Positions 901-44,721 of a stretch of DNA of 64,000 nt are shown here, one piece after another. Origin of the DNA: a virus; IMG/VR virus record IMGVR_UViG_3300036791_000399, positions 10,076-74,075 of that record. One strand, written 5' to 3'. How positions within the stretch are numbered: position 1 is the first letter of the stretch; each line of letters begins with the position of its first letter. The translations under genes were made by a program, and so were the position numbers. A model generated the notes under the pieces. That model was not told the DNA's origin and searched no databases. It saw only the letters and a program-made list of their open reading frames with translations.

Positions 901-3567
901 ATGCCTGCAGGCCTTGGGGCCATCCGTCTGCCGGCGTCACCGGTCGACGGAATGGACGATATGGCGACGCCGCCATTCGGCGGCCGCCAGGGCACCGTCG
1001 TCATCGACCTGGGGGACGACGAGCCCGACATCCCCGAGGTCGATACCGACAAGGGCGTCGAGATCGAGGGCGGCGGCGTCATCGTCCGAATCGGGCCTGC
1101 GCTCGCCGACAGGAAGAACCTAAAGTTCAACGACAACCTCGCCGAGGCGATCCCGCGCAATGTTCTTGGCGGGATCGCCGACGAACTGCTGCAGCGCATC
1201 GAAGAGGACAATAACTCGCGCCGCGAATGGCTCGACACCCGAGCGCGCGGCATCGAGATCCTGGGCCTGAAGATCGAGGCTATGCGATCGAGCGGGCCCG
1301 ATGGCTCAGCGCCCCTGGAGGGCCAGTCGCAGATCCGCGCCAGCCTCTTGTGTGAGGCGGTCGTACGATTTGGGGCGAACGCCTTTTCCGAGCTTTGCCC
1401 GACCGACGGGCCGGCGAAGGTCACCGAGGACACCGCAGCCTCGACCGCCGATCTCGACGACCTCGCCGACGCTCTGGAGAAGGTGCTCAACCATTACCTG
1501 ACGACGATCGACAAGCCCTGGGTGCCAGACACCGACGCGATGCTGTTGCGGGTCGGCGTCGATGGTTGCGTGTTCAAGAAGGTCTATCACGATCCCATTC
1601 TCCGCAGACCGATCTCGCGCGCCGTGTTCGGCGAAGACGTGATCATCAACAATTCCGCGACCTCGATCTATGACGCCAAGCGCATCACGCACCGGGTGAT
1701 GATGGCGCCGTCGACCCTGCGCCGGATGCAATTGGTCGGCGCCTATCGCGACGTGCCGCTCGGCGATCCTGGCTGGAAGCAGAAGGACGCGCCCGAGATT
1801 CAGTCGGAGCAGATCGGCGGCGTACGCAGGAACGAGAGCTACGAGCGCGACGATCGCGATCACGAGATCTTCGAATGCTACTGCGAACTCGACCTGGAGG
1901 GTTTCGAGCACGAGACAGCCGGCGAACCGGACGGTCTTGCCGTGCCTTTCAAGGTGGCGATCGATCGTGAATCGAAGGAGGTGTTGGAGATCCGGAGGAA
2001 TTGGAACGAAGAAGATGACATGTGTTTGCCAAAGACGTTCTTCGTCCAGTTTCCATTCATTCGAGGCTTTGGAATTTATGCTATTGGCCTCTCGCATCTC
2101 TTGGGCAATATTACAAACGGCATCACTGCTGCTTGGCGAGAGTTCATCGATGCCGGGATGTTCGCGAACTTTCCTGGCCTATTGGCTGCAAAGGGGGCTG
2201 GGCGGCAAGACAATTCTGTAATCAGGATCCCTCCTGGCGGCGTTAAGGAGATTGAGACCGGCGGCTTGCCGATACAGCAAGTCGTGATGGGAATGCCCTA
2301 CAAATCCCCCGACGCCACCTTCGTTCAGTTCATTCAGCAGCTAAACTCAGAGGGCCAGCGCCTCGGCGGCACCGCCGACGTGATGGTGGGCGAGGGCCGT
2401 CAGGACGCGCCAGTCGGGACGACCCTCGCTCTCATCGAGCAGGCGATCAAACCGCTCCTCGCCACTCACAAACGATTGTGCGCCGCGCAATCGGATGAGC
2501 TTCAGCTTCTTGTCGAGCGGTTCCGCGAGGATCCCCAGGCGCTCTTCCGGCATCAGCGGCCGAGCGCCAACGGGTTTTCCTGGGACGAGCAACTGGTTCT
2601 CAAGGCGCTGAACACCTACCAGATCGTCACGCGCGCGGATCCGAACACCGCCTCGCACCTGCAGCGCATGTTGCGCAACGCCGCGCTCTACATGATGGCG
2701 AAGGACGACCCTGCCGCCTTCAATCTGATGACGGTGCGGCAGGTTTGCATCCGGGGCATCGGGTTCGCGAATCCGGCGCAGTTCATCAATCAGAACCCGC
2801 AGCCGCCGCCCCCGGATCCGAAGGCGATCGCCGCGCAGACGACTGCCCAGGCGGCGCTTCTCGACGCCCAGGCGAAGATGGGGCAACTGCAACTCGACGC
2901 GAAGAACGCGCCGATGGAGGCGCAGGCGCGGCAGATGGACGCGAGCGCCAAGATCCAGGCGGCTCACGCCGGGGTGCAGAAGCAGCAGCTAGCCACGCAG
3001 ACCGCCGGGATGCAGGCGCGTAACGAGCAAATGAAGCCGGCGATGGAGCAGGCTGGGCGCCAGCACGAGGCGGAGCAGAACCAAGCCGATCGGCAGACCG
3101 ACATCCTCAAGGAGCAGTTGAAACACGCGCACGAGATGCGGCTCGCGGGGATGGAGCAGCAAGGCGACATGCAGAAGGCCGGCATGGAGCAGCAGGGCCG
3201 TTTGGCCGAAGTCGGAGCTAAACACCAGACTGAAGTTGCTAAAGCCGGGATGCAGCATCAGGCGTCGATGGAGGAGGCGCATCTGCAGCATCAATCCGCC
3301 ATGGCCCAGGGCGCGCAGGCGCATCAGACCGAAATGGCGAAGGGGCAGCAGCAGCAGGCCACAGCCATGGCCACAGGCGCGCAGCAGCACGAGGGCAAGC
3401 TCGCCGAGATCAAGGCTCAGCCTAAGCCCGCGGCCGCGGCGCCGAAGCGGGCGACCGGCGGCCGGGTGACGACGCCGTTCGGCGAGGCGCGGCAGGCGCC
3501 TGACGGGCACCACTACGTCAAGCACCCGATTTCTGGGCAGTACTTCCGGGTGAAGAGGGGCGAATAA
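901..3567 (+). CDS. portal protein (P22-like podovirus type) with long Q/H/A-rich C-terminal extension
   Basis: Conserved portal blocks (FNDNLAE, SRREW, GCVFKKVYHD, FIRGFGIYAIGLSHLLG, DAPVGTTLALIEQ); size and position. Confidence 0.9.
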   Translation: MPAGLGAIRLPASPVDGMDDMATPPFGGRQGTVVIDLGDDEPDIPEVDTDKGVEIEGGGVIVRIGPALADRKNLKFNDNLAEAIPRNVLGGIADELLQRIEEDNNSRREWLDTRARGIEILGLKIEAMRSSGPDGSAPLEGQSQIRASLLCEAVVRFGANAFSELCPTDGPAKVTEDTAASTADLDDLADALEKVLNHYLTTIDKPWVPDTDAMLLRVGVDGCVFKKVYHDPILRRPISRAVFGEDVIINNSATSIYDAKRITHRVMMAPSTLRRMQLVGAYRDVPLGDPGWKQKDAPEIQSEQIGGVRRNESYERDDRDHEIFECYCELDLEGFEHETAGEPDGLAVPFKVAIDRESKEVLEIRRNWNEEDDMCLPKTFFVQFPFIRGFGIYAIGLSHLLGNITNGITAAWREFIDAGMFANFPGLLAAKGAGRQDNSVIRIPPGGVKEIETGGLPIQQVVMGMPYKSPDATFVQFIQQLNSEGQRLGGTADVMVGEGRQDAPVGTTLALIEQAIKPLLATHKRLCAAQSDELQLLVERFREDPQALFRHQRPSANGFSWDEQLVLKALNTYQIVTRADPNTASHLQRMLRNAALYMMAKDDPAAFNLMTVRQVCIRGIGFANPAQFINQNPQPPPPDPKAIAAQTTAQAALLDAQAKMGQLQLDAKNAPMEAQARQMDASAKIQAAHAGVQKQQLATQTAGMQARNEQMKPAMEQAGRQHEAEQNQADRQTDILKEQLKHAHEMRLAGMEQQGDMQKAGMEQQGRLAEVGAKHQTEVAKAGMQHQASMEEAHLQHQSAMAQGAQAHQTEMAKGQQQQATAMATGAQQHEGKLAEIKAQPKPAAAAPKRATGGRVTTPFGEARQAPDGHHYVKHPISGQYFRVKRGE

Positions 3568-6500: not shown

Positions 6501-7223
6501 CCGCCGGAACGAGGCGATCCAATTGCGCAGCCCTACGGCTCTAAGGCGCAGAAGCTTCACCAGCAAAACGTGAAGAACGTCCTAACCGAAGGCTATGACG
6601 TCCTGCAAAATCCGAAGCCGCCGTCTTTCGTTCAGAACCTGATGGGTAATTACGCCCCTGGCACGATGGACCGGCACGCCTTCAAGCTCCCGGCGATGCT
6701 GTCTCGTGATCCGCGCTTCCTGGAGACGTCGTTCACGCCGGAGAAAGGCGCGGCGCCGGTGCGCCCCCAAGAGATGTATCGAAACGGGAAGCTGACGATT
6801 GACGATGCGGTCAATCAGCCGACCATGTGGGCGGGTATGCCGAACAAGAACGAATATGCCGCGCTTGAGGGCTACTACAAATCGATCGCCGATGAACTCG
6901 GGATCACGCCAGCCCAGGTGCAGGCGTCGGCCTGGGTGGGCGGCGGACACGTCACGGGGCTGGCCTCAGCCGCTGACGAGACGTTCCTGCATTCTTTCCA
7001 GGGGAGAGTCTTCAACACTGCGCACCATACCGGGCAGACGCCCGCGGAAGTGGTCAGGAAGATGATTCGCGGCGAGCAGCCTTTGTTGGCGGGCGGGCCG
7101 GGAATGGCACCAGTTCTCCCGCAGGGTCAGGCTCGGAAAGAAGCTCAAACTTCGACGGCTGGGGCGGGAGCTTTGCCTCCGCAACCATCTGATCAAGAAC
7201 TTCGCGAACACCCGTTTTATTGA
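3567..7223 (+). CDS. large polyvalent virion-associated protein with two enzyme-like modules; the second is HhH-GPD/DNA-glycosylase-like
   Basis: Module 1 YRELLL..SHW..NVVAHLR..LHLEELQSDW; module 2 WY..SATSP..N..PKPPSF..TMDRH..Y..A.ELG.TPAQVQASAW; start overlaps portal stop (TAATG). Confidence 0.75.
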   Translation: MPVQDFGDTDGWTAEPVDHDPFSSETNPFVAGNVGNESGPFRKTGFAGHIAATSDASHPLTARSLPFAASQPQESVSSYDPSWAEQIESGVGDTAESAGIPRVGAQRLGSTARTAAEFTPFVGNVLAGNEAYRAQQRGDPFGAVLHGAMAVPIPGASTEEGAARRLTPLGFYSHGADVAANLPQAKGTAEQMLSQLGKRGVKPEEMTRAGVTEDNLALPLFAKQPITREELAERFDQAMPKLQETGYGQQYYRNDEYGGGTKYDQYTLPGGQNYRELLLHLPEGQETTPRQGYAIFHASNDDRTPESPVFATEAEARRELERYPPSLAYEVRDAPFKGEGEGAGDYQSSHWDVPNVVAHLRMSDRKGTGGENLLHLEELQSDWGQEARKEAEVNRVAPGPSDTGVPNAPFIGSTQGWTDLGLKRALIEAARGNYDGLIWTSGADQAARYDLSKQISDLSYSPDFGSLQGRTTRGYRGINESNIPPEKLADYVGAETAKKLLGTPLGPHWNAGGGATFEDGWHTLSGLDLQTGGEGMKGYYDRLLPNRLATLTKKLDPDAKVGTTRVPGFLDLTPFREGGGQYSVQNRAGDFTDAGPRFNSKAEALDEIARRKAADPGKEFQHLPITPLMREKILKGLPQYKRGGRIAMADGGASDYVPTGSVTFAHGSLEPVDGDPFPPAPQVLDSDINRAKGFPEPRSPMHDRIAAASQDDHGDAPATGVISPEAMYQQTPHSTETLAHYAGNPEHAMPLRIGAAVGEEGKRMGQALWSAATAPGDVLTGKASMADPETQNRVIGLAASLPGGGPEAALGARGPVGAAAKAAKRAPAERELNTWNAETGQWEGPKPKMNPPEGVTYPPLFNLDPEVMNKVPDVPQFDLPRYDPPRGVSERMRDLVTNPDVRKQMIQLVRNGMQTVGLSWYNTGQLRAMFLKELGDTEGQQAFEKYMNLVSATSPENKIPQNIRTASHFYERDAQGVPPPERGDPIAQPYGSKAQKLHQQNVKNVLTEGYDVLQNPKPPSFVQNLMGNYAPGTMDRHAFKLPAMLSRDPRFLETSFTPEKGAAPVRPQEMYRNGKLTIDDAVNQPTMWAGMPNKNEYAALEGYYKSIADELGITPAQVQASAWVGGGHVTGLASAADETFLHSFQGRVFNTAHHTGQTPAEVVRKMIRGEQPLLAGGPGMAPVLPQGQARKEAQTSTAGAGALPPQPSDQELREHPFY

Positions 7224-7332
7224 GAAACTCCTTGAGCGGGAGGCGCTCGATCACCGTCGGGCCCTCCTCTTCGAAGACTTCCAGTTCCCAGCGGTTATTC
7301 CGCCAAAGCGGCCAAGCTGTGTAGCGCATCAC
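7054..7332 (-). CDS. hypothetical protein overlapping the 3' end of the polyvalent gene in antisense
   Basis: Start overlaps the stop of the 7329-7670 ORF; 170-bp antisense overlap lowers confidence. Confidence 0.5.
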   Translation of the reverse strand: MMRYTAWPLWRNNRWELEVFEEEGPTVIERLPLKEFLNKTGVREVLDQMVAEAKLPPQPSKFELLSEPDPAGELVPFPARPPTKAARRESSS

Positions 7333-7670
7333 TGGTCACCTGCCGTAGTGTGAAGAAGCTCCATCAACTTGTTGATCTCGATCTTATGCGCCGCGACCGC
7401 CCGATCATGGTCGAGACTATCCTGAATCTGCTCCGGGGTCCGCTGATCCGCTTCCGCGGGCGTGACAGGCTCGACCGTGGGCTCGACTGGCTCGACCGCC
7501 GGCAGGGGGATTGAATCTGGCGGGATCTTCGTAATCTCGACGTAATAGGCTTTTGACGTGCGGGCGTGGATCCCGCCGCAGTGCTGCGGCCATGGGTATG
7601 ACCAAACGCTGTAGCAGTGGGCGTGCGCGGGTTGAGCGATGAGCAGTGCGGCGATAGCGAGTTTGTACAT
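7329..7670 (-). CDS. secreted protein (signal peptide), moron-like
   Basis: MYKLAIAALLIAQPAHA signal peptide with AxA site; strong AGGAGG RBS; own promoter and operator. Confidence 0.75.
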   Translation of the reverse strand: MYKLAIAALLIAQPAHAHCYSVWSYPWPQHCGGIHARTSKAYYVEITKIPPDSIPLPAVEPVEPTVEPVTPAEADQRTPEQIQDSLDHDRAVAAHKIEINKLMELLHTTAGDQ

Positions 7671-7685
7671 AGTGCCTCCTGTTGA

Positions 7686-7704
7686 TGTCGCTATTTCTGC
7701 TACA
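7686..7704. promoter_or_regulatory. 19-bp operator TGTCGC-N7-GCTACA
   Basis: Matches the palindromic consensus at 44423, 50190, 57839, 59201 and 59304; just downstream of TTGACA (7722-7717, minus strand). Confidence 0.65.
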
Positions 7705-7715
7705 AGCGAGGCACA

Positions 7716-7743
7716 TTGTCAACCGGGCGGTTTGTGCTAAAAA
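7716..7743 (+). promoter_or_regulatory. rightward promoter for the head operon
   Basis: TTGTCA-16 bp-(GC)TAAAAA; same -35 hexamer as the 477 promoter. Confidence 0.45.
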
Positions 7744-7787
7744 CAGCGACTGAGGCAGTTGTGGGATCGATGACGGGAGGGCTCCCC

Positions 7788-8342
7788 TTATGGGGAGCGC
7801 CAATAGTGAAACTGTCCTCGCTCTTTCATGGCCGCGATCTCGTAGATACGGGCCGCCTCTTCGGCGGTAGCGAAATATCCAAGATGGCGTTTTACGCCAT
7901 TGGAGCGTATCTCGGCTTGAAATTTCCTATTGCGCTGCACCACTCCACGGAACCCAGACTTGCTCTTCGTCTTTCGTTCTTGGTTCCAATTTTGCTCCGT
8001 CACTGTCGCCAACCGCAGTTGCTCCCAGCGATTATCGTTAGGCTTGCGATCCTTGTGATCGATCGTGTTCGGAGGGTCGCGGCCGGTCATCCATTTCCAA
8101 ATCACGCGATGCGCGAGATAGAGATCGCCAGCGATGCCGATTTGGCATTCACCACGCTTTTTGGGCACCCCCGCAGGTTTCCTTGCGTAGCGCGTGTTCC
8201 AAATTTTCCAAGCCCTTGTCGTGACGAAATGGTCTTGCGGTCGCTGCTTCCATGTCAGCGCGCCATTCTCCGGGTCATAATCGAAACAGGCGCGCAAGAA
8301 GTTCTGCGAAGGCAGAATTTTGTTAGGATAGGAGTTAGGCAT
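7788..8342 (-). CDS. HNH homing endonuclease with C-terminal AP2-like domain, antisense insertion
   Basis: YDPENGALTWK, AHRVIW, IDHKDRKPNDNRWEQLR, SGFRGV..HLGYF.TAEEAA; flanked by hairpins at 7781-7798 and 8368-8402. Confidence 0.9.
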   Translation of the reverse strand: MPNSYPNKILPSQNFLRACFDYDPENGALTWKQRPQDHFVTTRAWKIWNTRYARKPAGVPKKRGECQIGIAGDLYLAHRVIWKWMTGRDPPNTIDHKDRKPNDNRWEQLRLATVTEQNWNQERKTKSKSGFRGVVQRNRKFQAEIRSNGVKRHLGYFATAEEAARIYEIAAMKERGQFHYWRSP

Positions 8343-8424
8343 CGGAAGATAGCCCTTCTGATGTTCAGAGACGCCGTCGTCCTTGCCGGGAGGCGGCGTC
8401 TCGTCAGCTTAGCGGAGTTGAGCT

Positions 8425-9318
8425 ATGCCAGCTAGCCTCACGCCCAAAGATCATACCTCCGCCGTCCTCAAGCGCATGAACCTCGCCGGGTCGATTCCCG
8501 GTAATCTCGACCGGAATAACGATGCTCAAGCGGACAACTACGGTCTAGCCTCCGCCCGCTCGTCCGACGCTTCCAGTTTTAAACTCACCGGAGCCCCGAA
8601 ATCGCCTCACATGGGGCGCCCTGGCAGGCAGGCTGGCGGCCGGATCTCAGGCGATCTTGTCCGCACCCGGCGCACTCCGCGAGAAACCGCCGCCGATATC
8701 GCGGACGAAGAGAGGACTGTCCAGGCGCTCGCCAAGGACCGCGCGACCGGCGGCCGGATCGGGCGCTCGCTCGGCGGCTCGGCGACCGCCAAAGACGAAT
8801 ACACCCAAGCCGGGAGGACGATGACCAACGAGGACGCCTCCGGGAAGGATCGATTTACCGGCGGAGATTTCCCTCCCAGCCACGCTAGTGGCGGCCGGGT
8901 CGGCCGCGCGCATGGCGGCCGCACCGCCAAGGGCAAGACCACAGTCAACGTGATCATCGGGGGACAAAAGGCCAATGCGCCGACGCCTCCCATGCCGCCA
9001 CCGCCGATGGCCGCTCCCGGACCCGTCGGCCCGCCTCGTCCGCCGCCAGTGATGCCGCCTCCCGGTGGGCCTCCTGGCGGAATGCCGATGGGCGGCGCGC
9101 CTCCGGGCATGGCTGGCGCCTCACCTCCCGGCGCTCCGCCGATGCTCAGAGCGCGCGGGGGGAGGATCGAGGCCGAAACCGCCGGCAGGCACGACTTCGG
9201 CAAGGCCGGCGTCCACAGTTTCGGCAAGGGGGGCACTAGGGCCGGGGTCAGCCTCAAGCGCGAGTACGGATCTGGCAGCGGCCTCGGCCGCATGGAGATC
9301 GCGCGCAAGGAGAAATGA
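8425..9318 (+). CDS. low-complexity basic/Pro-rich putative internal head protein with six GG motifs
   Basis: RQAGGR, RATGGR, RSLGGS, HASGGR, RAHGGR, RARGGR; GGAG RBS. Confidence 0.75.
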   Translation: MPASLTPKDHTSAVLKRMNLAGSIPGNLDRNNDAQADNYGLASARSSDASSFKLTGAPKSPHMGRPGRQAGGRISGDLVRTRRTPRETAADIADEERTVQALAKDRATGGRIGRSLGGSATAKDEYTQAGRTMTNEDASGKDRFTGGDFPPSHASGGRVGRAHGGRTAKGKTTVNVIIGGQKANAPTPPMPPPPMAAPGPVGPPRPPPVMPPPGGPPGGMPMGGAPPGMAGASPPGAPPMLRARGGRIEAETAGRHDFGKAGVHSFGKGGTRAGVSLKREYGSGSGLGRMEIARKEK

Positions 9319-9536
9319 TGCTCGATGCGTCGTCGCTCTATTTCGGGCGCAGGCTCCTGGAGATGATTCAAGAGAAACAACTCGAAATGCAAAAGCCGCT
9401 CTTGTCGGGGGCGGCGCTCGATTACCCCGACTACAAGGACCGCGCCGGGTATCTGCGGGCCTTAGCCAACGTCGTTAGCTGGATGGAAAAGATCAGCCTG
9501 GAGGAGGAAAACACTCGTGGCGCAAGTAGCCTATAG
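9315..9536 (+). CDS. small helical phage protein
   Basis: Translational coupling (ATGA); DYKDRAGYLRAL; typical position before phage GroES. Confidence 0.75.
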   Translation: MMLDASSLYFGRRLLEMIQEKQLEMQKPLLSGAALDYPDYKDRAGYLRALANVVSWMEKISLEEENTRGASSL

Positions 9537-9930
9537 GGTCGTCCATAAAGAGGATCCGCGCGACGCAATCATGCGCGACCTCGGCTCGCTTGATGGCTTT
9601 GACATTGCCGCGCAAGGCGTCCTCATCGCCACCTACGAGCGCTCCGACGATATCAAAACCGAAGGCAACATCATCCTCCCCCATGCTCATCTGAAAGAGG
9701 ATGAGTTCCAGTCGCGGGTCGGCTTGGTGGTGAAGCTCGGCCGGCGCGCCTTCGTCGATGACGAGCATATCCAGTGGCACGGCTTCCGCTGCGACGTCGG
9801 TGATTGGGTCGTCTACCGGCTGTCCGAGGGCATCAAGATGCAGATCCCCGGCCCTGGCGGGGTCAAGTGTCGCTTGATGTCCGATGCCTACCTCAAGCTC
9901 AAGGTTTCTCATCCAGATGCCGTATTCTGA
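9517..9930 (+). CDS. GroES/Cpn10-like co-chaperonin
   Basis: KTEGNIILP, VGLVVKLG, CDVGDWVVY motifs; GGAGG RBS. Confidence 0.8.
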   Translation: MAQVAYRVVHKEDPRDAIMRDLGSLDGFDIAAQGVLIATYERSDDIKTEGNIILPHAHLKEDEFQSRVGLVVKLGRRAFVDDEHIQWHGFRCDVGDWVVYRLSEGIKMQIPGPGGVKCRLMSDAYLKLKVSHPDAVF

Positions 9931-9932
9931 AA

Positions 9933-10463
9933 ATGGAGCATATCTCGATCCATTTCTTATCCGAGTGCTTTGAGCATCAAGGCGACGGAGTTCTGTTGTG
10001 GAAAGCGCGCCCAAGGGCGCACTTCTTCTCAGATTCATCTTGTCTGAAGTGGAACCGCAAATACGCGGGAACGATAGCGGGAATAAGCAAACAAGGTCGT
10101 GGATATCATCAGATTGGTTTGACGTATCAAGGACAACGACGTGGTCTTTTAGTCCATCGCGTAATCTGGGCGCTGTCGAATGGCCGGTGGCCAAACGAAA
10201 TCGATCATCGCAATGGTGATCGTGGCGATAATCAGATCAGTAATCTTCGCGAGGCGGATCGATCTCAACAGATGCAAAACCAGCATCCGAAGAGGCTCAT
10301 TGGCGCGTCTGAGGATCGCCGAGATGGAAGATTCCAAGCTTACATAAACTTGCGAGGAAAGCGGACGGCGCTTGGTCGATATGAGACAGCCGAGCAAGCG
10401 CACGCTGCTTATCTCGTCGCCAAAAAACGGCTGCATTCTTTCCAGCCTGAATTTCGAGATTGA
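9933..10463 (+). CDS. HNH homing endonuclease with AP2-like C-terminus
   Basis: VHRVIW, EIDHRNGDRGDNQISNLR, LGRYETAEQAHAAY; lower GC than flanks; start re-assigned to ATG 9933. Confidence 0.88.
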   Translation: MEHISIHFLSECFEHQGDGVLLWKARPRAHFFSDSSCLKWNRKYAGTIAGISKQGRGYHQIGLTYQGQRRGLLVHRVIWALSNGRWPNEIDHRNGDRGDNQISNLREADRSQQMQNQHPKRLIGASEDRRDGRFQAYINLRGKRTALGRYETAEQAHAAYLVAKKRLHSFQPEFRD

Positions 10464-11443
10464 TGCGGGATGTACTGATGCCGATCGACGACGAAGACAC
10501 AGCCAAGGCGCAAAAGGATCACGGGAGCTACTTCGCGGCGTCGACCCAGGATGATGAAGGTCCGGAGACTCGCTACGAGCCGATCGAGGTCGACCTCAGT
10601 CAGCCGGAACCGAAGAAGGGCGAGACCGGGCGCGACACTGGCGCCGCGGCCGAAGAGCTTCGTGCGCAGCTAAGGCAGGCGCAAAACGCCGCCCAGGCGG
10701 CTCAGCGCATGGCCCAGGAGCAGAGCCAAAGGGCGGCGCTCGCCGAGCAGCGCGCCCAGGGCTCGACGGTCAGCATGATCGATTCGGCGCTTGAGGCCGC
10801 GCAGGTCACTGCCGCCAACGCCAAGGCTAAGTTCCAGGCCGCGCTCGACGCCGCGGACAGTGCAGCCGCTGCCCAGGCGCAGGAAGAATTGTCCGACGCT
10901 CGGCATAACCTGCTGCGCCTGCAGGAACACCGCGCCATGACAGCGGCGGAGGTCCGCCAGCCGCCCCCGCAGCGGCAGCAGCCGCAACTGAACTCAGTCG
11001 ACCAAATGGCGAGCAATCTCGTTGAAAGCGGTTACCCGCGATCGGCGGACTGGCTTCGCGCCCACCCGGACTGGGCGGCGCGCGGCGACTTGCTCGACCG
11101 GATTGCGACCGCCGACCGGCACCTCGTCAACAACAAGGGCTTCGTGCGCGAGACGGATGAGTATTTCGACGCCCTGGAGAATGAGCTTGGGATGAGATCA
11201 CAGCAGCAGCAACGAACCCCTGGCGCGGATTACAGCCACGTCCAGCGTCGGACGCCGCCGGCCGCGGCGCCGACCTCCAACAACGCGGTGAGCTTGCGCA
11301 CCGGTCAGCCGATGATGCGTTCGCACGTCCCGCTCACGCCAGCGATGCGCGAGGCGGCCGAGCTTAGCGGCATGTCCGAGCGCGAGTACGCCAAGGAGTT
11401 CGAAGAGGCCAGAGTGGCTGGCAAATTGATAGGTTACCGATGA
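10460..11443 (+). CDS. probable capsid scaffolding protein
   Basis: Long A/Q coiled coil, acidic N-terminus, C-terminal LTPAMREAAELSGMSEREYAK helix; upstream of capsid genes. Confidence 0.65.
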   Translation: MMRDVLMPIDDEDTAKAQKDHGSYFAASTQDDEGPETRYEPIEVDLSQPEPKKGETGRDTGAAAEELRAQLRQAQNAAQAAQRMAQEQSQRAALAEQRAQGSTVSMIDSALEAAQVTAANAKAKFQAALDAADSAAAAQAQEELSDARHNLLRLQEHRAMTAAEVRQPPPQRQQPQLNSVDQMASNLVESGYPRSADWLRAHPDWAARGDLLDRIATADRHLVNNKGFVRETDEYFDALENELGMRSQQQQRTPGADYSHVQRRTPPAAAPTSNNAVSLRTGQPMMRSHVPLTPAMREAAELSGMSEREYAKEFEEARVAGKLIGYR

Positions 11444-12003
11444 CTGACGCTCCCACTACGCACGTCCCCAACAATCGAGTCGGCAACAAAGAGACTGTCC
11501 GGAGCGCGGACGAGGTCGCCTCGGCCAAGCCGCAGATCATCGACCACGAAGCTCGGGCTCGCGCTCGCGTCGCCGAAATCAGGGCCATTCATGGTGACGA
11601 TGACTTCAGTGAGGTCTACGTCGACAAGTGGTTTGCCGAAGCGCCTCCCGGCTGGACGTATAACTGGAAGACCCACAGCGTCTGGAATAAGGAGTATCCG
11701 CAATACCTTAGTGCGCTGCAGCACACGGGCTGGAGTCCGGTTCCGGCGCATCGCGTGCGGCACCTCCTCTATCCGGAGTACGAGGGCGAGAACGTGATTC
11801 TTGACGGGATGATCCTGATGGAGCGCCCGAGGGAGTTGACAGATCGCGTAATCCAGCGTGAATATCGCCGCGCTGTGGATGTAGTGCGTAGTTCTGAGCG
11901 AAAGCTTTCGGATGCGCCGGCTGGTACGGCGCCCAGAACTGCCTTCGCAGAAACCTCGCCGCGAGTTCGCGGCCACGTCGGTCCCGTCGAAATCGACGGC
12001 TAA
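11440..12003 (+). CDS. head-module protein of unknown function
   Basis: PPGWTYNWK..GWSPVP..DGMILMERP; translationally coupled to the scaffold gene. Confidence 0.75.
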   Translation: MTDAPTTHVPNNRVGNKETVRSADEVASAKPQIIDHEARARARVAEIRAIHGDDDFSEVYVDKWFAEAPPGWTYNWKTHSVWNKEYPQYLSALQHTGWSPVPAHRVRHLLYPEYEGENVILDGMILMERPRELTDRVIQREYRRAVDVVRSSERKLSDAPAGTAPRTAFAETSPRVRGHVGPVEIDG

Positions 12004-12012
12004 CCGGCAAAA

Positions 12013-12113
12013 CGGCGGCCCCTTGGCGCTCTCGGGGTCACCGACAATCTGATGTCATCGGCGGCGCTCGCTTGATGACGAACCTTCCAACCCTCACGGG
12101 AGAAGTTCGTCAT
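12013..12113 (+). promoter_or_regulatory. structured 5' leader: two hairpins with GGCGCTC loops plus an alternative RBS-sequestering helix
   Basis: Manual pairing 12013-22/12034-43 and 12053-63/12069-80; alternative 12075-83/12105-13. Confidence 0.6.
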
Positions 12114-12747
12114 GGCGAACATATTTGCGCCCTTCGGTTTCGCGGAGTCTCACCGTCTCGGGGCCGCGCCCACCTATCAGATGTCGAAGCGCTGGATTAA
12201 CCCAGCGAGCGCCGTTCCGATCTATTTTGGCGACCCCGTCATCCAGACGTCGTCCGGTTATGTCGCCCAGGCGGCTCCGGCGGGCCAAGTCAGCGGCGTC
12301 TTCGCCGGCTGCGAGTACGTCTCGAAAGCAGCCAAGAAGATCATCTGGAGCCCCTGGTGGCCGGGGATCCCTAGCGACGTCGTGACCGGCGGCCAGGGCT
12401 TCGACGTCAACGCCAAGGTGATCGACGATCCGGCGATCGTCTTCAGGGTCCAGGCGAACGGTCAGATGACGGTGGGGATGATTGGCCTCAACGCCACGTT
12501 CACCTTCGGACTGGCCGCGGTTGCCGCCCCCGGCACCAATCCCGCGCCCAATCAGATGAGCGGCATTAGCAACATCGCTCTCGATATCACGCAGACCGTG
12601 CCGGCGGTCACCGCCACCTTGCCGTTCCGCATTGTCGACATCATCCGCGACCCGCCTGGGGTGAACGGGACAGATATCACAACGCCTTACAGTTGGGCGT
12701 TCGTGACCTTCAACAACCAGGACTTCAAGATCACAACCGGTATCTGA
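12112..12747 (+). CDS. probable capsid decoration/minor capsid protein
   Basis: MAN..APFGF, IYFGDPV, GVFAGCEY, VIDDP motifs; immediately upstream of the major capsid gene. Confidence 0.7.
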   Translation: MANIFAPFGFAESHRLGAAPTYQMSKRWINPASAVPIYFGDPVIQTSSGYVAQAAPAGQVSGVFAGCEYVSKAAKKIIWSPWWPGIPSDVVTGGQGFDVNAKVIDDPAIVFRVQANGQMTVGMIGLNATFTFGLAAVAAPGTNPAPNQMSGISNIALDITQTVPAVTATLPFRIVDIIRDPPGVNGTDITTPYSWAFVTFNNQDFKITTGI

Positions 12748-12792
12748 CGCACTGACGGAGCAGGCTAACCGTCATAGGATTGGAGAAGTAAC

Positions 12793-13707
12793 ATGGCCGT
12801 CTCCGTCGCCCAGGCGTACGATCTAATGTTTCCTGGCCTGCGCAAGGTCGCAGGGGAATATAAGGATATCGACCGGATCTATCCAAAGATCTATGCGGTC
12901 GATAAGTCCTACATGGCTGTCGAACGTACAGCGTCGATGCGCTTTCTAAGTCTTGCAGGCTTGAAGAATGAAGGCGCACCGACGATCTTCGATAATCAAG
13001 CCGGTGAACGGTATATCTACAATCAATACCACAAGGAGATTGGATTAGGATATGCGTTCACCAGAAGGATGGTGGACGACAACTTATATAAGAGACAATG
13101 GCGTCCATCTAATCTTGGTCTACAGAAGTCATTTAACCAGACCAAGGAGATTTACGGCGCAACTCCACTGAACACCGCGACGACCTACGACCCGTCGGTG
13201 CTCGGCGATCAGCAGCCGCTCTGCTCCCTCAACCATCCGATCGACGGCGCGGTTGTTCCTAACCGGTTCACCCTCGATATGGATCTCAACGAGGCCTCGC
13301 TGCTTAACGCCCAGGCCTCGATCCGCGGCCAGTTCCGCGACAATGCCGGTCTGCGTATGCAGGCGCGAGCGAAACGCCTAGTCGTTCCCATCGCTCTTGA
13401 GCCTATAGCCATTCGGCTCCTCAAGACTGTCCTAAGACCAGGAACCTCAGACAACGACGTCAACGCGATCCTTGAGACGTCAGGCGGCATTCCGGACGGG
13501 TATCTTGTTCACGATTACCTGACCTCGCCGACTTTCTGGTTCATCCTTACCGATCAGGAAGGCTTGCTGTACTTGCAGCGCGTACCGTTCGAAATGTCAA
13601 TGCAGGTCGACTTCACGACAGACAATCTACTTGTGAAGGGCTACGAGCGGTATAGTTTCGGGTACTTCGACTTTAGAGCAATCTGGGGCTCATTCCCGAC
13701 GCAGTAA
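12793..13707 (+). CDS. major capsid protein (HK97 fold, Mu gpT-like group)
   Basis: PGL..V..EY, KNEGAP, YH..IGLGY..T..MVDDNLY, GDQQPLCSLNHP, DLNEASL, WFILTD, ERYSFGY.D.R; GGAG RBS. Confidence 0.88.
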   Translation: MAVSVAQAYDLMFPGLRKVAGEYKDIDRIYPKIYAVDKSYMAVERTASMRFLSLAGLKNEGAPTIFDNQAGERYIYNQYHKEIGLGYAFTRRMVDDNLYKRQWRPSNLGLQKSFNQTKEIYGATPLNTATTYDPSVLGDQQPLCSLNHPIDGAVVPNRFTLDMDLNEASLLNAQASIRGQFRDNAGLRMQARAKRLVVPIALEPIAIRLLKTVLRPGTSDNDVNAILETSGGIPDGYLVHDYLTSPTFWFILTDQEGLLYLQRVPFEMSMQVDFTTDNLLVKGYERYSFGYFDFRAIWGSFPTQ

Positions 13708-13731
13708 CTGTAGCGGGAAGGAGTAAGACTT

Positions 13732-14268
13732 ATGGATATCACTCCTGGACTTGGTAATCTCCAACTAGTCGGGCAACCGACGTATGCCGCTGGCAACACG
13801 TTCAGCGGCCCGGTGATCGCTGGGTCGATCAAGAATAGCTCGGGCCCAAGCTCGCTTCCGGCTGGAGCCGGCGGAATGCAAGGCCTCGCCAACGCCGGCT
13901 ATGCCGAGATGGGCCAGTCGGCGGCTATCACCCAGGCGGCTGGCGCCGTTGGCACGCCAATCGTCATTCCTGGGCAAAGCCAGATCCTCTCGATCACCCT
14001 GATGGTGACGGCGGCCTGGACCGGCGGGGCGACCACCGTGTCGGTCGGGCGCACGGGCGGCGGTGTTGCTGATCTGGTCGCGCTGACGGCGGCTGCGGCG
14101 CTCGGGCAGCTTGCGCTCCTGCCCGGTACGGTCGCAGCGGCGGTTGCGCTCTGGAACGACGTCGGCAACGCCGACATGCAGATCACGGTGAACTCGGCCA
14201 ACGCTGGCGCCGGCGCCGGCATCTTGACCGTCCGCTATCTGCAAGGGATCAACATGACCGCCGGATAA
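13732..14268 (+). CDS. putative virion structural protein (beta-rich)
   Basis: Post-capsid position; TFSGPVIAG and G.LTVRY.Q pattern; AAGGAG RBS. Confidence 0.7.
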   Translation: MDITPGLGNLQLVGQPTYAAGNTFSGPVIAGSIKNSSGPSSLPAGAGGMQGLANAGYAEMGQSAAITQAAGAVGTPIVIPGQSQILSITLMVTAAWTGGATTVSVGRTGGGVADLVALTAAAALGQLALLPGTVAAAVALWNDVGNADMQITVNSANAGAGAGILTVRYLQGINMTAG

Positions 14269-14287
14269 CCGGTGTAAGGAGGTTTCC

Positions 14288-14683
14288 ATGAGCGGTGGTG
14301 AAGAAGGTCGAGCATACCGGGCGAGAGGCGGCGTAGTCTTCGCCGGCAAGGGCTCGCAGCCGCTGAAGCGCTTTAAATCCACGAGCCATCCATCCATCGC
14401 GGTCGATGCTTCGACGAAGCGCGGCGCAGGGCCGCTGTTCCGAAAGCGCGGCGGACGGCTCCCCGAGGCCTTTAAGGAGCACGAGGGGGATCCGGAGGAG
14501 GGTCGCGAGGAGAAGGCGACGGGCGGCGGGATCTCAGGCGGCGCTGCGAAGCCGAGCATGGGGCGCGCGGGGCGCAAGGTCGGAGGCGGCGTCGGCGCCG
14601 ACTGTTCCCCGCTGACGCACGCGCAGACCCCTTCGAAGCCGAAGGGCCGAAAGCTCATGGGCGAAGGCGAGAAGACTCCGTAG
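14288..14683 (+). CDS. small basic protein with four GG motifs
   Basis: AAGGAGG RBS; RARGGV, RKRGGR, KATGGG, RKVGGG. Confidence 0.75.
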   Translation: MSGGEEGRAYRARGGVVFAGKGSQPLKRFKSTSHPSIAVDASTKRGAGPLFRKRGGRLPEAFKEHEGDPEEGREEKATGGGISGGAAKPSMGRAGRKVGGGVGADCSPLTHAQTPSKPKGRKLMGEGEKTP

Positions 14684-14749
14684 TCATTTGGTTGACCCTT
14701 CCCCTCTGCCTCAAACAGGAGCGGGGTCGTTTCGCTGGAAACCATCAGG

Positions 14750-14788
14750 CGCCGCTGTCTTCTCCGCATGAGGGCAGCGGCGATTTTC
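14750..14788 (+). terminator. Rho-independent terminator after the capsid cluster
   Basis: CGCCGCTGTC...GGCAGCGGCG stem followed by ATTTT. Confidence 0.6.
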
Positions 14789-14802
14789 GTAGGAGACGGC
14801 AA

Positions 14803-15150
14803 ATGCGCCCAATTAGCGTCACCGTCGGCCCCGGCACCACCCCGCTTACGAGCGCTCCGATCAGGCTCGACGAGTGGGCGGATGCGCAACTCGGCGTCCA
14901 GGTAGCGCCGATCGGCACGGCCAATTTCACCGTCCAGACGAGCTTCGACGAAGGGCCGGATTCGCTTGTCAATCCGATCCCGGTGGGCTCGATGGTCTGG
15001 GATTCGACCTTGCTCCCGGCAGGGGCTGTAGCCGGTTCGGCCGCGATTTCGTTCACGCTCCTGGCCTCGCCGCTGTGGATCAGGCTCGTGCTGAATAGCG
15101 GCACGGGCTCGGCGCGGATGAATGTCGTTCAGTACGACAACGGGGCGTGA
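14803..15150 (+). CDS. putative virion structural protein
   Basis: AGGAGA RBS before ATG 14803 (MRPISVTVGP); beta-sandwich pattern ending WIRLVLNSGTG. Confidence 0.7.
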   Translation: MRPISVTVGPGTTPLTSAPIRLDEWADAQLGVQVAPIGTANFTVQTSFDEGPDSLVNPIPVGSMVWDSTLLPAGAVAGSAAISFTLLASPLWIRLVLNSGTGSARMNVVQYDNGA

Positions 15151-15449
15151 TGATGAATAATTCGACGCTTGAGATCACCGAGGGCGATCGTCAGATCAGC
15201 GAGATCGCAGGCGCCGTTGGCGCGCTCTCCGTTCACATTGCTGCCGATGATGGCGGGTGGATGGTCGCCGACTCGATCGGCCCGCCGGTTTCGGAGGCGA
15301 TTATCTGGGCGGCGCCCTACGATAGCGCTTACGTCGCGAGCGGCGCGGTAGTTCGTCTCGACTTTCCAGTTCAGAAGGGTCTTTGGCTTCGCGTGCCGCT
15401 TGGCGGAGTGTGCTCGATCTCGTGGGATGGACCGGCGACGCCCAAATGA
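15147..15449 (+). CDS. hypothetical protein
   Basis: Translationally coupled at both ends. Confidence 0.6.
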   Translation: MMMNNSTLEITEGDRQISEIAGAVGALSVHIAADDGGWMVADSIGPPVSEAIIWAAPYDSAYVASGAVVRLDFPVQKGLWLRVPLGGVCSISWDGPATPK

Positions 15450-16135
15450 GCCTCACCCTCACCAACACCTTCGACTTCGCCCCTTCGGCCGGCGAATGCG
15501 TCCTCAATGCGCTTTCGCGCATCCAGATCCGCGGCCCAATGGTGAAGACCGAAATGCTGCACATGGCGGCGATGGAGGCCAACCTGATGCAGGTCGAGTG
15601 GTCGAATCGGGGTCCGAACCTGTGGACGGTCGATGAGCAGGAGATCGAAACCGAGGCGGCGTTCGCCACCTACCCCGTCGACCCCTCGACGATCGCCGTC
15701 CTGGAGGTGACCCTCGGCCAGGGCAGTCCGCCCAACGAAACAGAGATCATGCTGACTTCGATCTCGCGCACCCAGTACATGTCTTATCCGAACAAGGCCT
15801 TGCCGGGGCGTCCGACAGTCTATTGGTTCGACATCCTGATCGCGCCGACGATCACTCTGTGGCCGGTCCCTGATCAGGTCTACAATCTGCACTTCAGCCG
15901 CTATCGCCAGCAAATGGACGCGACGTTGCGTAACGCCGGCAATTTTGAGGCGCCCTACCGGTGGCTCGATGCGGCGAGCGCGGGCTTAGCGCACCGGCTG
16001 GCGCGTCATTACGCGCCTGGATTGGAGCAGCAGCGCAAAGCGGATTACGTCGAGGCCTACGGCCATGCCGCGGCGCGCGACAAGGAGAACGCGCCGGTCT
16101 TCATCAGCCCGATGTTGGAGTTCTACAGCGCGTGA
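15446..16135 (+). CDS. head-tail adaptor / tail tubular protein A-like
   Basis: EWSNRGPNLW, ISRTQY..YPNK..GRPT.YW, TLWPVPD, PYRWLDA..GLA.RLA; start at ATG 15446. Confidence 0.75.
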   Translation: MSLTLTNTFDFAPSAGECVLNALSRIQIRGPMVKTEMLHMAAMEANLMQVEWSNRGPNLWTVDEQEIETEAAFATYPVDPSTIAVLEVTLGQGSPPNETEIMLTSISRTQYMSYPNKALPGRPTVYWFDILIAPTITLWPVPDQVYNLHFSRYRQQMDATLRNAGNFEAPYRWLDAASAGLAHRLARHYAPGLEQQRKADYVEAYGHAAARDKENAPVFISPMLEFYSA

Positions 16136-16144
16136 GGAGAGACT

Positions 16145-16519
16145 ATGGCTTGGGCTTCACGCTCTGGGAGGGCCGTCACTAATCCTGAACACCCGCGGGC
16201 GTTCGCCGTCTGCGATAATTGCCGCTTTTGGTACAACCATAACAAGCTGAAATGGCAGCGCGAGTGGCAGGGCACTCAGATCATCAACAAGGGCTTCCTG
16301 GTCTGCGAGGGATGTCTCGACAAGCCCAATCCGCAGCTTAAGGCGCGGTTGATGCCGCCGGATCCGGTGCCGATCGCCAATCCGCGGCCCGAGATCAACA
16401 TCTACCCGCTCGACGTCTTTCATGTTGGAGTCGAAACGACTCCGCGCGCCGCGGTCGCGACCGAAACGGACGCCTCTCGCAACTGGCCAGCCGGCGCGCC
16501 GATGGAAATTGAGGATTAA
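16145..16519 (+). CDS. Cys4 zinc-binding virion-module protein
   Basis: AVCDNCRFWY...VCEGCLDKPNPQ..DPVPI.NPRP; AGGAG RBS. Confidence 0.75.
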   Translation: MAWASRSGRAVTNPEHPRAFAVCDNCRFWYNHNKLKWQREWQGTQIINKGFLVCEGCLDKPNPQLKARLMPPDPVPIANPRPEINIYPLDVFHVGVETTPRAAVATETDASRNWPAGAPMEIED

Positions 16520-16520
16520 T

Positions 16521-16913
16521 ATGTCTAGTTGGAAACATGGACAAGCTCCTCAAGGAGCAGGGAAGCCTGAGACGAAGGAATATCGTGCGTGGCGCAATAT
16601 GATACGGCGCTGCACCGAAATAAATAACGCGAGCTATTCTTATTACGGCCCGCGAGGAATTTCGGTGTGCGAGCGCTGGCGGAATGATTTTATTACGTTT
16701 CTGGCGGATATTGGTAAGGCACCATCTCAACAACATTGGCTCGATCGTATTAATGGTGACGGCAATTACGAGCCGGGGAATGTACGCTGGGTAACTCCGG
16801 CAGAATCTGCCCGTAACAGGCGTGGAAATTATCACACGCCAAAGAGAGAGGAAGCGGTGAAGAAGTGGCGGGAGGCTGGGCCAAGAGCGCGCCGCAGGGA
16901 GCTTCAGCCGTGA
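16521..16913 (+). CDS. HNH-type homing endonuclease (W..M..RC / RGI.VC.RW family)
   Basis: [41 protein letters not shown]; low GC. Confidence 0.85.
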
Positions 16914-18262
16914 ACGACTTCAGCGAGAAGCCGAGCGCCTGGAAGGGCCCCTTCCAGCGGGCCTATGTCGACCTATCGACCTCGACCCGCCAGACGTCGC
17001 TCGCTGCGCAGCCCACCAAGGCACGCGCGAAGAAGCCCCTCGGCCAGTCTGCCAAGACCTCGGCCCGTCAGAACCCATTCCAACGAGCCCCTGGCGAGCC
17101 GGCCTCCCCGAAGCCGCTCGACACGCTTCCGCCGCCGATCGAGCAAGAGATCCCGATCAGTCAGCTTCCGCTCGCGGGACCAATTCTCGGCGCCGAGATG
17201 GTCCCGATTGTGCAGAATGGGATTACCTGTCGTACGACCAGTGTCGGATTGGTCGGCCCGGTGGGATCCCAGGGGCCGATGGGACCGCCTGGGCCAGTAG
17301 GTCCGAAGGGCGCTGACAGCACGGTCCCTGGCCCGACAGGTCCGCAGGGCGCGCAGGGAGCCACAGGGCCGGCTGGGCCCCAGGGCGCGGCGAGCACGGT
17401 TCCTGGCCCGCAAGGACCGCAGGGCGCAACTGGCGCGGCCGGGGCGACCGGGGCGGCTGGACCCTCTGGCGCTGTCGGGGCAACCGGCCCTGCAGGACCG
17501 CAAGGGCCCCAGGGCAATGTGGGTCCAGCGGGTCCGCAAGGTGCGCAGGGCGCTGCGAGCACCGTCCCCGGCCCGCAAGGACCGACCGGGGCGACGGGTG
17601 CGGCAAGCACGGTCCCTGGCCCTGTAGGCCCAAGCGGACCCACTGGGGCGACTGGACCCCAAGGCCCACAGGGCGTCGCTGGCCCTCCTGGCGGCCTGGG
17701 CGAAGCGCCGCAAGACGGGCACATCTACGGCCGCGAAAACGCCGCCTGGGTGCAGGTAACGGGCGGCGGCGGAGCGAGCGTCACGATCTCGGACACGGCG
17801 CCCTCATCGCCGAACGTCGGCGATCTCTGGTGGTCGTCGACGCTTCTGACGATGTTCGTCTATTACAACGACGGCACCTCGAGCCAGTGGGTCGTAGCGA
17901 GTCCGGGGATCAGCGCGTCGAGTCCCTTGGTCAATGCGCCGTTCTCGGTCGCCAATGTCGCCGCCAGCGGCGCGACTGCGCTCAACTGGACGAACGGCGA
18001 CATCCAGAAGGTCACGCTCAACGCCAATTCGACCATCGCCGTCTCGGGCTGGCCGGCTTCCGGCACGCTCGCCAAGCTCACGCTCGATATTCAGAACACC
18101 GGCGCTTTCAACATCACTGGCTGGCCCACCGGGACGAAATGGGCGGGCGGCGCGGCGCCGACGATTACTTCCGGCGCCGGAAAGCAGGACGTGATCGTTC
18201 TGATGTCGCTCGACGGCGGAACGACCGTTCTGGGCTCGGTCGCGGGGCAGAATTACTCATGA
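16910..18262 (+). CDS. collagen-like tail fibre protein 1
   Basis: Long Gly-X-Y run, [23 protein letters not shown] module, beta-rich C-terminal domain; GTG 16910 overlaps the HNH stop. Confidence 0.8.
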
Positions 18263-43356: not shown

Positions 43357-43511
43357 GCCAGATGCTCAAGCCGACCGAGTTTCTCGGCGATCTGCGTGTG
43401 GCCCTGTTGCTCCAGGACATAGGCGACCATCTCCAGGAACCGCTCGACGCCGAGACGGTCGATGATCGTAGCGATCAGTTCTTCCCAGTGCTTGTTGTCG
43501 TATTCCAACAT
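43353..43511 (-). CDS. 52-aa small ORF (MLEYDNKHWEELIA...)
   Basis: GAGGGG RBS; stop overlaps the YqaJ ATG. Confidence 0.6.
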   Translation of the reverse strand: MLEYDNKHWEELIATIIDRLGVERFLEMVAYVLEQQGHTQIAEKLGRLEHLA

Positions 43512-43531
43512 TTCCACCCCTCCCTGAGATA

Positions 43532-44284: not shown

Positions 44285-44412
44285 ACTCTCTCCATTCCGT
44301 AGGGCGGAGACAGCGAGCGCCGCCGCCTCCGCCCCACTTGATCAGGCCGCTCACGACGTCGACGTCCGGATTCGCAAACGCCATCTCCCGGTCGCGGCCC
44401 GATTCATTTCCC

Positions 44413-44496: not shown

Positions 44497-44721
44497 ATGC
44501 GTTTGGATATCTATCTCGAAAAGAGCAACACGCCGGTCAAGACGTTCGCCGGGATGATCGGCGTCCACCGGACCAGTGTTTATCGATTTATGAAGGGCTT
44601 AGCCTTCCCCCGACCACAGACGATCGAGCACATTACCCAGGTGACCCAGGGCAAGGTCACCGCCAACGACTTCATCGCGATTAACCCTAGAGAGTCACGC
44701 TCCCTTTCCGCTGTCGGCTAA
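44497..44721 (+). CDS. Cro-like XRE helix-turn-helix regulator
   Basis: MRL..YL..FA..IGV..TSVYR..G..FP...I..I...T.GKVTANDF. Confidence 0.85.
   Translation: MRLDIYLEKSNTPVKTFAGMIGVHRTSVYRFMKGLAFPRPQTIEHITQVTQGKVTANDFIAINPRESRSLSAVG

Follow-up and report, generated by a model that had tools for sequence, protein, structure and literature searches.

In bacteriophage Mu, the Shine-Dalgarno (SD) sequence and AUG of the late gene mom are locked in a stem-loop, and the small protein Com binds a hairpin just 5' of it, so that the fold shifts and ribosomes can start. The targets of the ANTAR proteins EutV, NasR and AmiR are dual hairpins (PMC3369931, PMC8934654), and actinobacterial variants of them act on translation (10.1101/660928, PMC8164766). 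An ANTAR dimer recognizes the loop sequence together with its closing pair, and the loops are six nucleotides long, with A in first and G in fourth place (PMC3369931). How double-stranded DNA phages control their capsid genes after transcription has been little charted, and most accounts of late control concern transcription itself. Here, we analyze a stretch of 64,000 nt of viral DNA (hereafter the window; positions 10,076 to 74,075 of IMG/VR virus record IMGVR_UViG_3300036791_000399), in which the 108-nt gap ahead of the first capsid-module gene holds two hairpins with the same loop, HP1 and HP2, and a competing helix that buries the start of that gene.

The gap separates a gene for a 187-aa protein (11440..12003, plus strand, from the list of open reading frames [ORFs]) from one for a 211-aa, beta-rich, probable capsid decoration protein (12112..12747, plus strand), with the upstream gene ending 10 nt ahead of HP1. 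In HP1 (12013..12043, plus strand), the 5' arm CGGCGGCCCC (12013-12022) and the 3' arm GGGGUCACCG (12034-12043) form 9 of 10 pairs, with one C·A mismatch and one G·U, and the apex reads GGCGCUC (12025-12031). HP2 (12053..12080, plus strand) joins 12053-12063 to 12069-12080 through 10-11 bp with a single bulged U, its GGCGCUC apex (12063-12069) is a GCGCU pentaloop on a G-C closing pair, and its 3' end lies 18 nt ahead of the SD. Both hairpins and their common G-GCGCU-C apex had been proposed in a first-pass annotation of this DNA and are found when the sequence is read directly. The same annotation held that the 3' arm of HP2 can instead pair downstream and bury the SD (GGGAG, 12098-12102) and the AUG (12112-12114), and both the sequence and the minimum free energy (MFE) fold from RNAfold bear this out. 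In this sequestering helix (12068..12118, plus strand), AUGACGAAC (12075-12083) and GUUCGUCAU (12105-12113) are perfectly complementary, and the helix runs outward through UCGCU (12068-12072) with GGCGA (12114-12118); RNAfold draws it out to 12064-12130. The inner extension that had been proposed, CUUCC (12084-12088) with the GGGAG of the SD, is possible as a pairing, but RNAfold favors UUC/GAA plus CCC/GGG in its place, which buries the SD likewise. The sequestering helix and HP2 have 13 nucleotides in common (12068-12080) and are mutually exclusive in the predicted folds; if HP2 is bound, its site would overlap the inhibitory helix, as expected for activation of the Com/mom type.

The two alternative folds were compared with RNAfold. 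The MFE fold of 12004-12135 contains HP1 and the sequestering helix at -50.9 kcal/mol, and enforcing HP2 gives -45.7 kcal/mol, which is 5.2 kcal/mol worse, while HP1 is folded in both. At equilibrium, the calculated probability is 0.999 for the sequestering helix and 0.0016 for HP2, with an HP1 pair probability of 0.996. As isolated elements, HP1 reaches -16.4, HP2 -13.0, the core of the sequestering helix -18.1 and its extended form -27.9 kcal/mol. When HP2 is enforced, the AUG is freed and the SD stays in a small local hairpin. Opening the region from -16 to +6 costs 19.4 kcal/mol compared to 12.9±2.6 in 10 shuffles of the upstream part, the third highest value among all 73 genes predicted in the window, for which the median is 9.9. 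The window contains 46 copies of GGCGCTC where 33±5 would be expected, and long stable hairpins lie under only three of them, namely HP1, HP2 and one at 44315-44321 on the minus strand. The folding z-score of the whole leader is just -1.94 and is not convincing alone; the decisive evidence is comparative.

Relatives of the decoration protein were confirmed by protein scans (271 in IMG/VR and 393 in metagenome contigs), and 80 loci were fetched from each source, which yielded 110 distinct leaders spanning -150 to +30. The twin-hairpin arrangement is present in most of them. We refer to leaders with GGCGCUC loops as clade A and to those with CCCGGYGY loops, which come mainly from freshwater contigs, as clade B. 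A covariance model of the hairpin structure gave one match per genome, in 32 clade-A leaders at E < 1e-15. Across these 32, pairing reaches 93.4% over HP1, HP2 and a small inner hairpin compared to 32-46% in slid controls, and 19 of 28 pairs are altered on both sides compared to 10.6 in shuffles, with none of 500 reaching that number, in an alignment that is fitted to the model and hence biased towards the structure. Within the same alignment, 11 of the 14 HP1 pairs are altered on both sides, HP2 has 97% of its cells paired and 5 of its 10 pairs altered on both sides, and G·U pairs are frequent in the stems. A swap test that involves no such fitting gave -8.9 kcal/mol for HP1 arms from the same genome and -2.5 kcal/mol for foreign arms. 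For HP2, the compensatory series includes GUCAUC/GAUGAC, GUCAC/GUGAC, GUCUC/GAGAC, GUCACC/GGUGAC and GUCGGC/GCUGAC.

The sequestering helix is conserved in a different manner. In clade A, 79% of its cells are paired compared to 27-43% in slid controls, in an alignment with six rows off by one column. Its outer part changes from UCGCU/GGCGA to UCGGU/GCCGA in relatives whose codon 2 changes from Ala to Pro. Two groups of relatives carry a 6-nt insertion (L024, L026, L032 and L041 with GUCAUCACCAUG; L033, L035, L040 and L095 with GUCACGCCAUG) that places the AUG 6 nt beyond the conserved, paired UCGUCA, and in these relatives, the helix covers the SD and the AUG now lies outside it. In clade B, 31 of 37 leaders adopt an equivalent two-tier hairpin, with AUGAUGG/CCGUCAU as the outer tier and anti-SD/SD as the inner one, and the leaders that lack the 3' strand GUCAU also lack the 5' AUGAUGG (L063, L131, L152 and L165). 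The outer HP2 helix of this clade occurs in 23 distinct strand combinations (GGUUC/GAGCC, GUUUCC/GGAAAC, GCUUC/GGAGC and AGUC/GGCU, for example) and reaches at least 5 bp in 21 of 37 own pairs compared to 29% of foreign pairs. The 3' strand of this helix lies across both tiers of the sequestering hairpin, and the two structures therefore compete in clade B as they do in clade A, despite different sequences. When all clades are taken together, the gap between own and foreign partners in swap tests of the outer HP2 helix and the sequestering helix is modest, and opening the start costs 14.6 kcal/mol compared to 11.2 in shuffles, with 48 of 110 leaders above all 10 of their shuffles (about 10 expected). 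Covariation in homologues, which had been named as a check on the original proposal, is thus strong for the two hairpins and scarce for the sequestering helix, which the alignments back chiefly through sequence conservation and correlated loss rather than compensatory change.

The loops, which we find the most informative, follow another pattern, in which the sequence differs across the family, yet each genome bears one loop in both hairpins. We found at least eight loop classes (GGCGCUC, GGCGUUC, CCCGGYGY, CCCGUUGY, CACGAUGM, GGGCC, GCGCC, CCGGU/UCGGU and a few more), with CCCGGUGU as an example of a loop from a class other than GGCGCUC. When the strongest hairpin in each zone was picked blind to its loop sequence, 49 of 110 genomes shared a loop word of at least 6 nt between HP1 and HP2, compared to 4.4% when HP1 and HP2 were paired across genomes with different loops. 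In one locus (L101, 346-493), GGCGUUC replaces GGCGCUC in both loops, a matched single-base change at two sites. The two loops lie 37-43 nt apart in 59 of 69 leaders, with a median of 40, though HP1 stems span 5-14 bp; for the distance from the HP2 loop to the AUG, the commonest values tabulated cover at least 39-56 nt. Conservation of the loops, as the first-pass annotation envisaged it, therefore exists as repetition within a genome and not as a fixed sequence across the family. Its proposal that the twin loops bind a factor gains from this: loops that are identical, co-varying and evenly spaced point to two sites read by one sequence-specific, trans-acting factor. Loops that agree within a genome, diverge between clades and keep a fixed distance of about 40 nt lead us to expect a binder rather than passive stabilizing hairpins.

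Some features of the leaders were noted alongside the hairpins. A promoter-like element (TTGACA-N17-TTAAGA or TAnnnT) stands 20-60 nt ahead of HP1 in L002, L006, L007, L010, L018 and many clade-B loci, where a terminator-like hairpin with a U-run often comes before it; in such relatives, a separate transcript would begin with the leader. The leader in the window is intercistronic and has no such element, and a consensus promoter and terminator scan of 7000-17000 gave nothing beyond shuffled expectation. Codons 6-7 of the decoration gene (Ala-Pro) read GCGCC (12126-12130), which is complementary to the GGYGY loop core of the two largest clades. The long-range pairing of this segment with GGCGC of the HP2 loop, drawn by RNAalifold, was considered and found to be unsupported, as the partner is invariant coding sequence that does not track changes in the loop and reads GCCCC in several relatives. 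An upstream ORF starting in the conserved AUGAUGG/AUGACG was also rejected, since its frame and its distance to the main AUG differ among relatives.

A third hairpin with the same apex lies far from the capsid genes. It lies on the minus strand at 44299-44337, has a 16-bp stem, a folding energy of -36.2 kcal/mol and GGCGCUC at 44315-44321, and belongs to the leader of the early leftward operon. The ATG of ORF 43856-44284 (minus strand), at 44284, follows 14 nt downstream, and the hairpin ends 6 nt ahead of the SD of that ORF and adjoins a divergent Cro/AlpA-like helix-turn-helix (HTH) gene (44497-44721). All three GGCGCUC loops are read in the sense of transcription. Genome-wide scans for GCGCU-loop hairpins are swamped by GC-rich background, with control loops equally frequent, and the third hairpin alone stands out. 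In the closest of the relatives examined (G005, whose HTH protein is 76% identical), a hairpin occupies the equivalent position, with GGCGCUC kept and the stem compensatorily changed; there, it lies 25 nt from the SD and is followed by a different first gene. The presumed reader would thus have a second target in this lineage, which speaks for a regulon reaching beyond the capsid genes. In locus L189, the long hairpin with this apex lies in the early leftward leader at about 11220-11260 (minus strand). The first gene after the third hairpin in the window, ORF 43856-44284, encodes a 142-aa hydrophobic, membrane-like protein. G005 lacks it in the corresponding operon, and the leader there is followed directly by the homologue of ORF 43353-43517.

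We hypothesize that the 108-nt gap functions as an RNA switch acting in cis on the mRNA of the capsid module, dependent on a protein and activating translation, a reading that we regard as evenly poised between right and wrong. RNA without the factor would settle in the buried (OFF) fold, preferred by about 5 kcal/mol, with HP1 serving as a constitutive docking site and HP2 as an anti-sequestrator weaker than the competing helix by the same amount. The factor, whose existence, protein nature, activating effect on binding and time of action we infer, would most likely be a dimeric or two-site RNA-binding protein that reads the identical G-GCGCU-C apices about 40 nt apart. Docked on HP1, it would capture HP2 and block invasion by the downstream strand, and the gap of 5.2 kcal/mol is within reach of a protein-RNA interaction. 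Capture of HP2 would free the AUG and part of the ribosome site and so allow the decoration protein to be translated, and the capsid protein could be made in turn only if its translation, too, depended on the leader. The first-pass annotation suggested that the switch sets the stoichiometry of capsid and decoration proteins; the leader is poorly placed to set this ratio because both genes lie downstream of it. The element may point to a mechanism that times or insulates capsid production, possibly linking early shut-off to late expression, in temperate phages of soil and freshwater bacteria. A bolder version of this account, which we consider possible but rather doubtful, is that the leader belongs to a novel phage operator/reader system. 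In such a system, a protein would read an identical loop pair about 40 nt apart and unlock translation of the capsid module, at least eight loop specificities would have diversified across widespread uncultivated tailed phages so that related phages do not cross-activate, the reader would have been recruited to the early leftward operon in this lineage, and the syntenic 187-aa protein would be the first candidate for it.

Several observations weigh against an activating switch. The ON fold is only partial, given the local hairpin that keeps the SD, and a repressed ribosome site is odd for a virion protein expected to be highly abundant. The sequestering helix is mostly invariant, with four double-changed pairs, a number matched by 50 of 500 shuffles, and it could be conserved for another reason; moreover, RNAalifold on an unfitted MAFFT alignment recovered HP1 and the small inner hairpin and did not recover HP2 or the sequestering helix. 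Many of the loci trace to a few soil and freshwater studies, so that the rows of our alignments are not independent, and the groups of L047, L054 and L069 lack twin loops, having one such hairpin or a different leader. In four more distant genomes (G001-G004), the long hairpin at the place of the third one carries other, variable loops, and a genome of the CACGAUG class (G006) has no additional CACGAUG hairpin. As for the factor itself, no ANTAR domain (PF03861) was matched at E <= 1 in the 74-kb phage record, Pfam found no RNA-binding domain in the 20 early-region proteins scanned, and the AlphaFold2 model of the 187-aa protein (predicted local distance difference test score [pLDDT] 72) has no informative fold match (Foldseek E >= 0.9; best VIA Z 4.0).

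Other explanations were weighed against the same evidence. The twin loops and their fixed spacing imply a binder but not its sign, and the hairpins could be the operator of a repressor, with translation shut off or feedback-limited by a late or structural product (the decoration, capsid or 187-aa protein) and the early leftward operon silenced by the same protein through the third hairpin. Repression of this kind is familiar from the MS2 coat protein and its replicase operator, T4 RegA or gp32, the autoregulation of the P22 scaffold and the start-overlapping actinobacterial ANTAR RNAs. The end of HP2, 18 nt from the SD, sits at the edge of the 30S footprint, and a hairpin 6 nt before the SD of ORF 43856-44284 suits steric repression, but with 25 nt in G005, this steric overlap is not conserved. 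A stabilized HP2 would also take away the strand that forms the 5' side of the sequestering helix, and this should open the start rather than close it, and the start is already closed without any factor at the calculated probability given above. We consider a repressor operator unlikely, though it deserves to be kept in mind. The hairpins might also act on transcription elongation, as boxB-like sites for an N-type antiterminator or as a put-like RNA on the polymerase that lets the long late operon be read through, with the SD-burying helix a separate matter, as in the lambda N leader. Loops that are alike within a genome and different between phages, on stems that covary, are what boxB shows in lambdoid phages; many relatives start HP1 a few nucleotides past a terminator and a TTGACA-N17 promoter-like element; the copy beside the Cro-like gene, in the early leftward leader, occupies the position of nutL; and the phage, as judged from an integrase gene at 51014-52255, is temperate. 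Against this stand the form of the hairpins, with stems of 9-16 bp and GC-rich GCGCU-type loops in place of stems of about 5 bp with purine-rich, GNRA-like pentaloops, and the lack in the window of both a promoter match at the leader and a terminator-like signal beyond shuffled expectation in 7000-17000. No small, arginine-rich N-like protein was recognized in the Pfam scans of the 20 early-region proteins, N proteins being too short and divergent for such a scan to be decisive, and the only boxA-like sequence, CGCUCU, falls within the HP1 apex, with no separate boxA seen. Antitermination would also leave the conserved competition between HP2 and the sequestering helix unexplained. We find it quite improbable.

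An account with no dedicated factor would have the hairpins stabilize the mRNA or serve in processing by RNase III or E, coupled to kinetic folding, such that HP2 forms first and gives a short window for translation before the OFF fold sets in, or cleavage of the long helix frees the start; identical loops would then reflect loop-loop kissing. Five loop classes do hold a GC-only 4-nt palindrome (CCGG, GGCC and GCGC cores), GGCGCU (with G·U ends) and GGCGUU are each self-complementary over their full length, the extended helix, at about 19 bp, is within the range of RNase III substrates, and HP1 lies near the putative transcript start in relatives with their own promoter-like element. However, the CACGAUGM and CCCGUUGY loops are not palindromic, loop identity reaches past the palindromic core, kissing requires complementarity rather than identity, and the third hairpin is solitary. 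The RNAalifold pairing of the HP2 loop with codons 6-7 would suit such an account as well, but for its invariant Ala-Pro partner and the GCCCC of several relatives. A mechanism of this type seems to us to have a low probability. Finally, the elements are inverted repeats, and the phage encodes very large virion proteins (2181 aa), so they might act as DNA, in the form of an operator, a promoter hairpin of the N4 virion polymerase type or another protein-binding inverted repeat. Their arms vary with complementarity kept and the center alone is conserved, which is the opposite of a double-stranded DNA operator; the frequent G·U pairs would be mismatches on the other strand; and all copies share one orientation relative to transcription and are coupled to SD and AUG. 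We regard a role at the DNA level as highly improbable.

Returning to the protein-dependent switch, the 187-aa protein encoded just upstream, which had been named early on among the possible binders, is a candidate for the reader. It is syntenic with the leader in most loci that have enough upstream DNA, and 97 distinct relatives found by tblastn among the fetched loci are always upstream of the leader, including in clades with different loops; it stays our first candidate because of this synteny. It has no Pfam or PHROG match, and its relatives share a conserved core, PPGW.Y.WK...GW.PVP...LMERP. No Com-like zinc-finger protein was recognized in the Pfam scans of 20 early-region proteins, and no dedicated search was made for one. 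Complementarity of the loops to 16S rRNA or tRNA was judged by eye only and dropped, since universal host RNAs cannot explain clade-specific loops.

The surrounding genes place the leader in a head module. The source record, a 74-kb IMG/VR virus, is judged to be 99% complete, and the whole window is present in one sequencing run only, a soil metagenome that is possibly its own source. Apart from the integrase and the Cro/AlpA-like gene, the phage encodes a primase, an AAA_25 helicase and a YqaJ exonuclease. The structural module runs from the portal (901-3567) through a 1218-aa protein, an HNH endonuclease (9804-10463, plus strand; phrog_99, E 1.7e-44), a 327-aa coiled-coil protein (10460-11443), the 187-aa protein and the 108-nt gap to the 211-aa protein and the major capsid protein. 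The HNH endonuclease lies within this module, with the portal-proximal genes on one side and the coiled-coil protein on the other. The 211-aa protein matches phrog_37556, a PHROG of function not known, and its AlphaFold2 model is beta-rich (pLDDT 81). The best PDB matches of the model are weak (E 0.01-0.4) and are capsid decoration or auxiliary chains of HFTV1, Sf11, T1, TW1 and Pam3, and its named BFVD matches are "head fiber," "capsid fiber" and DUF2190. On this modeled structure, it is probably a capsid decoration protein, of the cement or head-fiber kind, and the label "capsid operon" used for the genes below the leader is fair for that reason. The major capsid protein gene (12793..13707, plus strand) begins 45 nt past the decoration gene, matches the major head protein family phrog_371 weakly and, by blastn, matches a sequence that is annotated as major capsid protein in MW202675.

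The element is common, short and clearly covarying, and it lies outside Rfam: a search of Rfam 15 with 11000-13500 of the window at E <= 10 gave sub-threshold noise only, and seven related loci gave nothing at the gathering threshold. We found no description of this twin-hairpin element in the literature searched. One catalogue lists over 10,000 candidate structured RNAs from viruses, among them five upstream of one capsid family that are not detailed (PMC10690425), and it may contain the element unnamed. The genome-specific twin loops offer a natural specificity series for finding and dissecting an RNA-binding protein, and if the activator model is true, they would provide orthogonal protein-RNA translational switches for synthetic biology.

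The element was compared with several known systems. In lambda N/boxB and HK022 put, too, a single temperate phage carries hairpins with a common loop in more than one operon leader; as with lambda boxB, loops differ between related phages while stems covary, and a copy occurs in the early leftward leader by a cro-like gene, and HK022 put RNA is likewise a two-hairpin element. One copy here has such a nut-like placement, and the other two precede late structural genes, where, unlike in lambda nut, the copies are in tandem ahead of capsid genes and coupled to a ribosome-binding site. On the form of stem and loop, the element does not belong to the boxB class. Like riboswitches and RNA thermometers, it has two mutually exclusive helices that set access to SD and AUG. 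However, no conserved multi-helix ligand pocket or junction is present, and the element has no host-invariant aptamer core of the small-molecule riboswitch kind, because no unpaired element other than the loops is conserved in sequence, and these change between clades; nor are identical twin loops a known feature of thermometers. The operators of RNA-phage coat proteins (MS2, PP7 and Qbeta) and of T4 RegA, gp32 and gp43 (PMC3014915) have a phage protein reading a specific loop near a start, as we propose here, and their specificity differs between related phages, as the loops do in this family. Those operators are single hairpins that contain the start and repress, whereas here, the hairpins lie upstream and a different helix buries the start.

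The likeness to ANTAR targets is closer, with two tandem small hairpins, matching terminal loops, a distance between hairpins that matters and a second hairpin that excludes a downstream inhibitory structure, and the dimer that reads loop and closing pair is a model for the reader proposed here. The loops in this family, on the other hand, are a G-C-closed GCGCU pentaloop or an 8-nt CCCGGYGY, and none of the observed classes fits AxxGxx; stems reach 9-14 bp with loops about 40 nt apart; the competitor is a helix that buries SD and AUG, without a U-tract, and not a terminator; and one family holds many loop specificities in a phage without an ANTAR domain. Given the absence of the A1/G4 hexaloop and, in the phage, of the domain, the element is not a member of the ANTAR class. 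In Mu Com/mom, the late-gene SD and AUG locked in a helix are matched directly by what we see at 12112, and the shift of fold caused by a small protein on a hairpin just upstream is what we propose; Mu differs in having a single binding hairpin, compared to twin sites at fixed spacing and a capsid-module target here. Altogether, our best reading of this analysis is that the element would be a protein-read dual-hairpin switch on translation, with a logic akin to that of the ANTAR dual hairpins and of Mu Com/mom.

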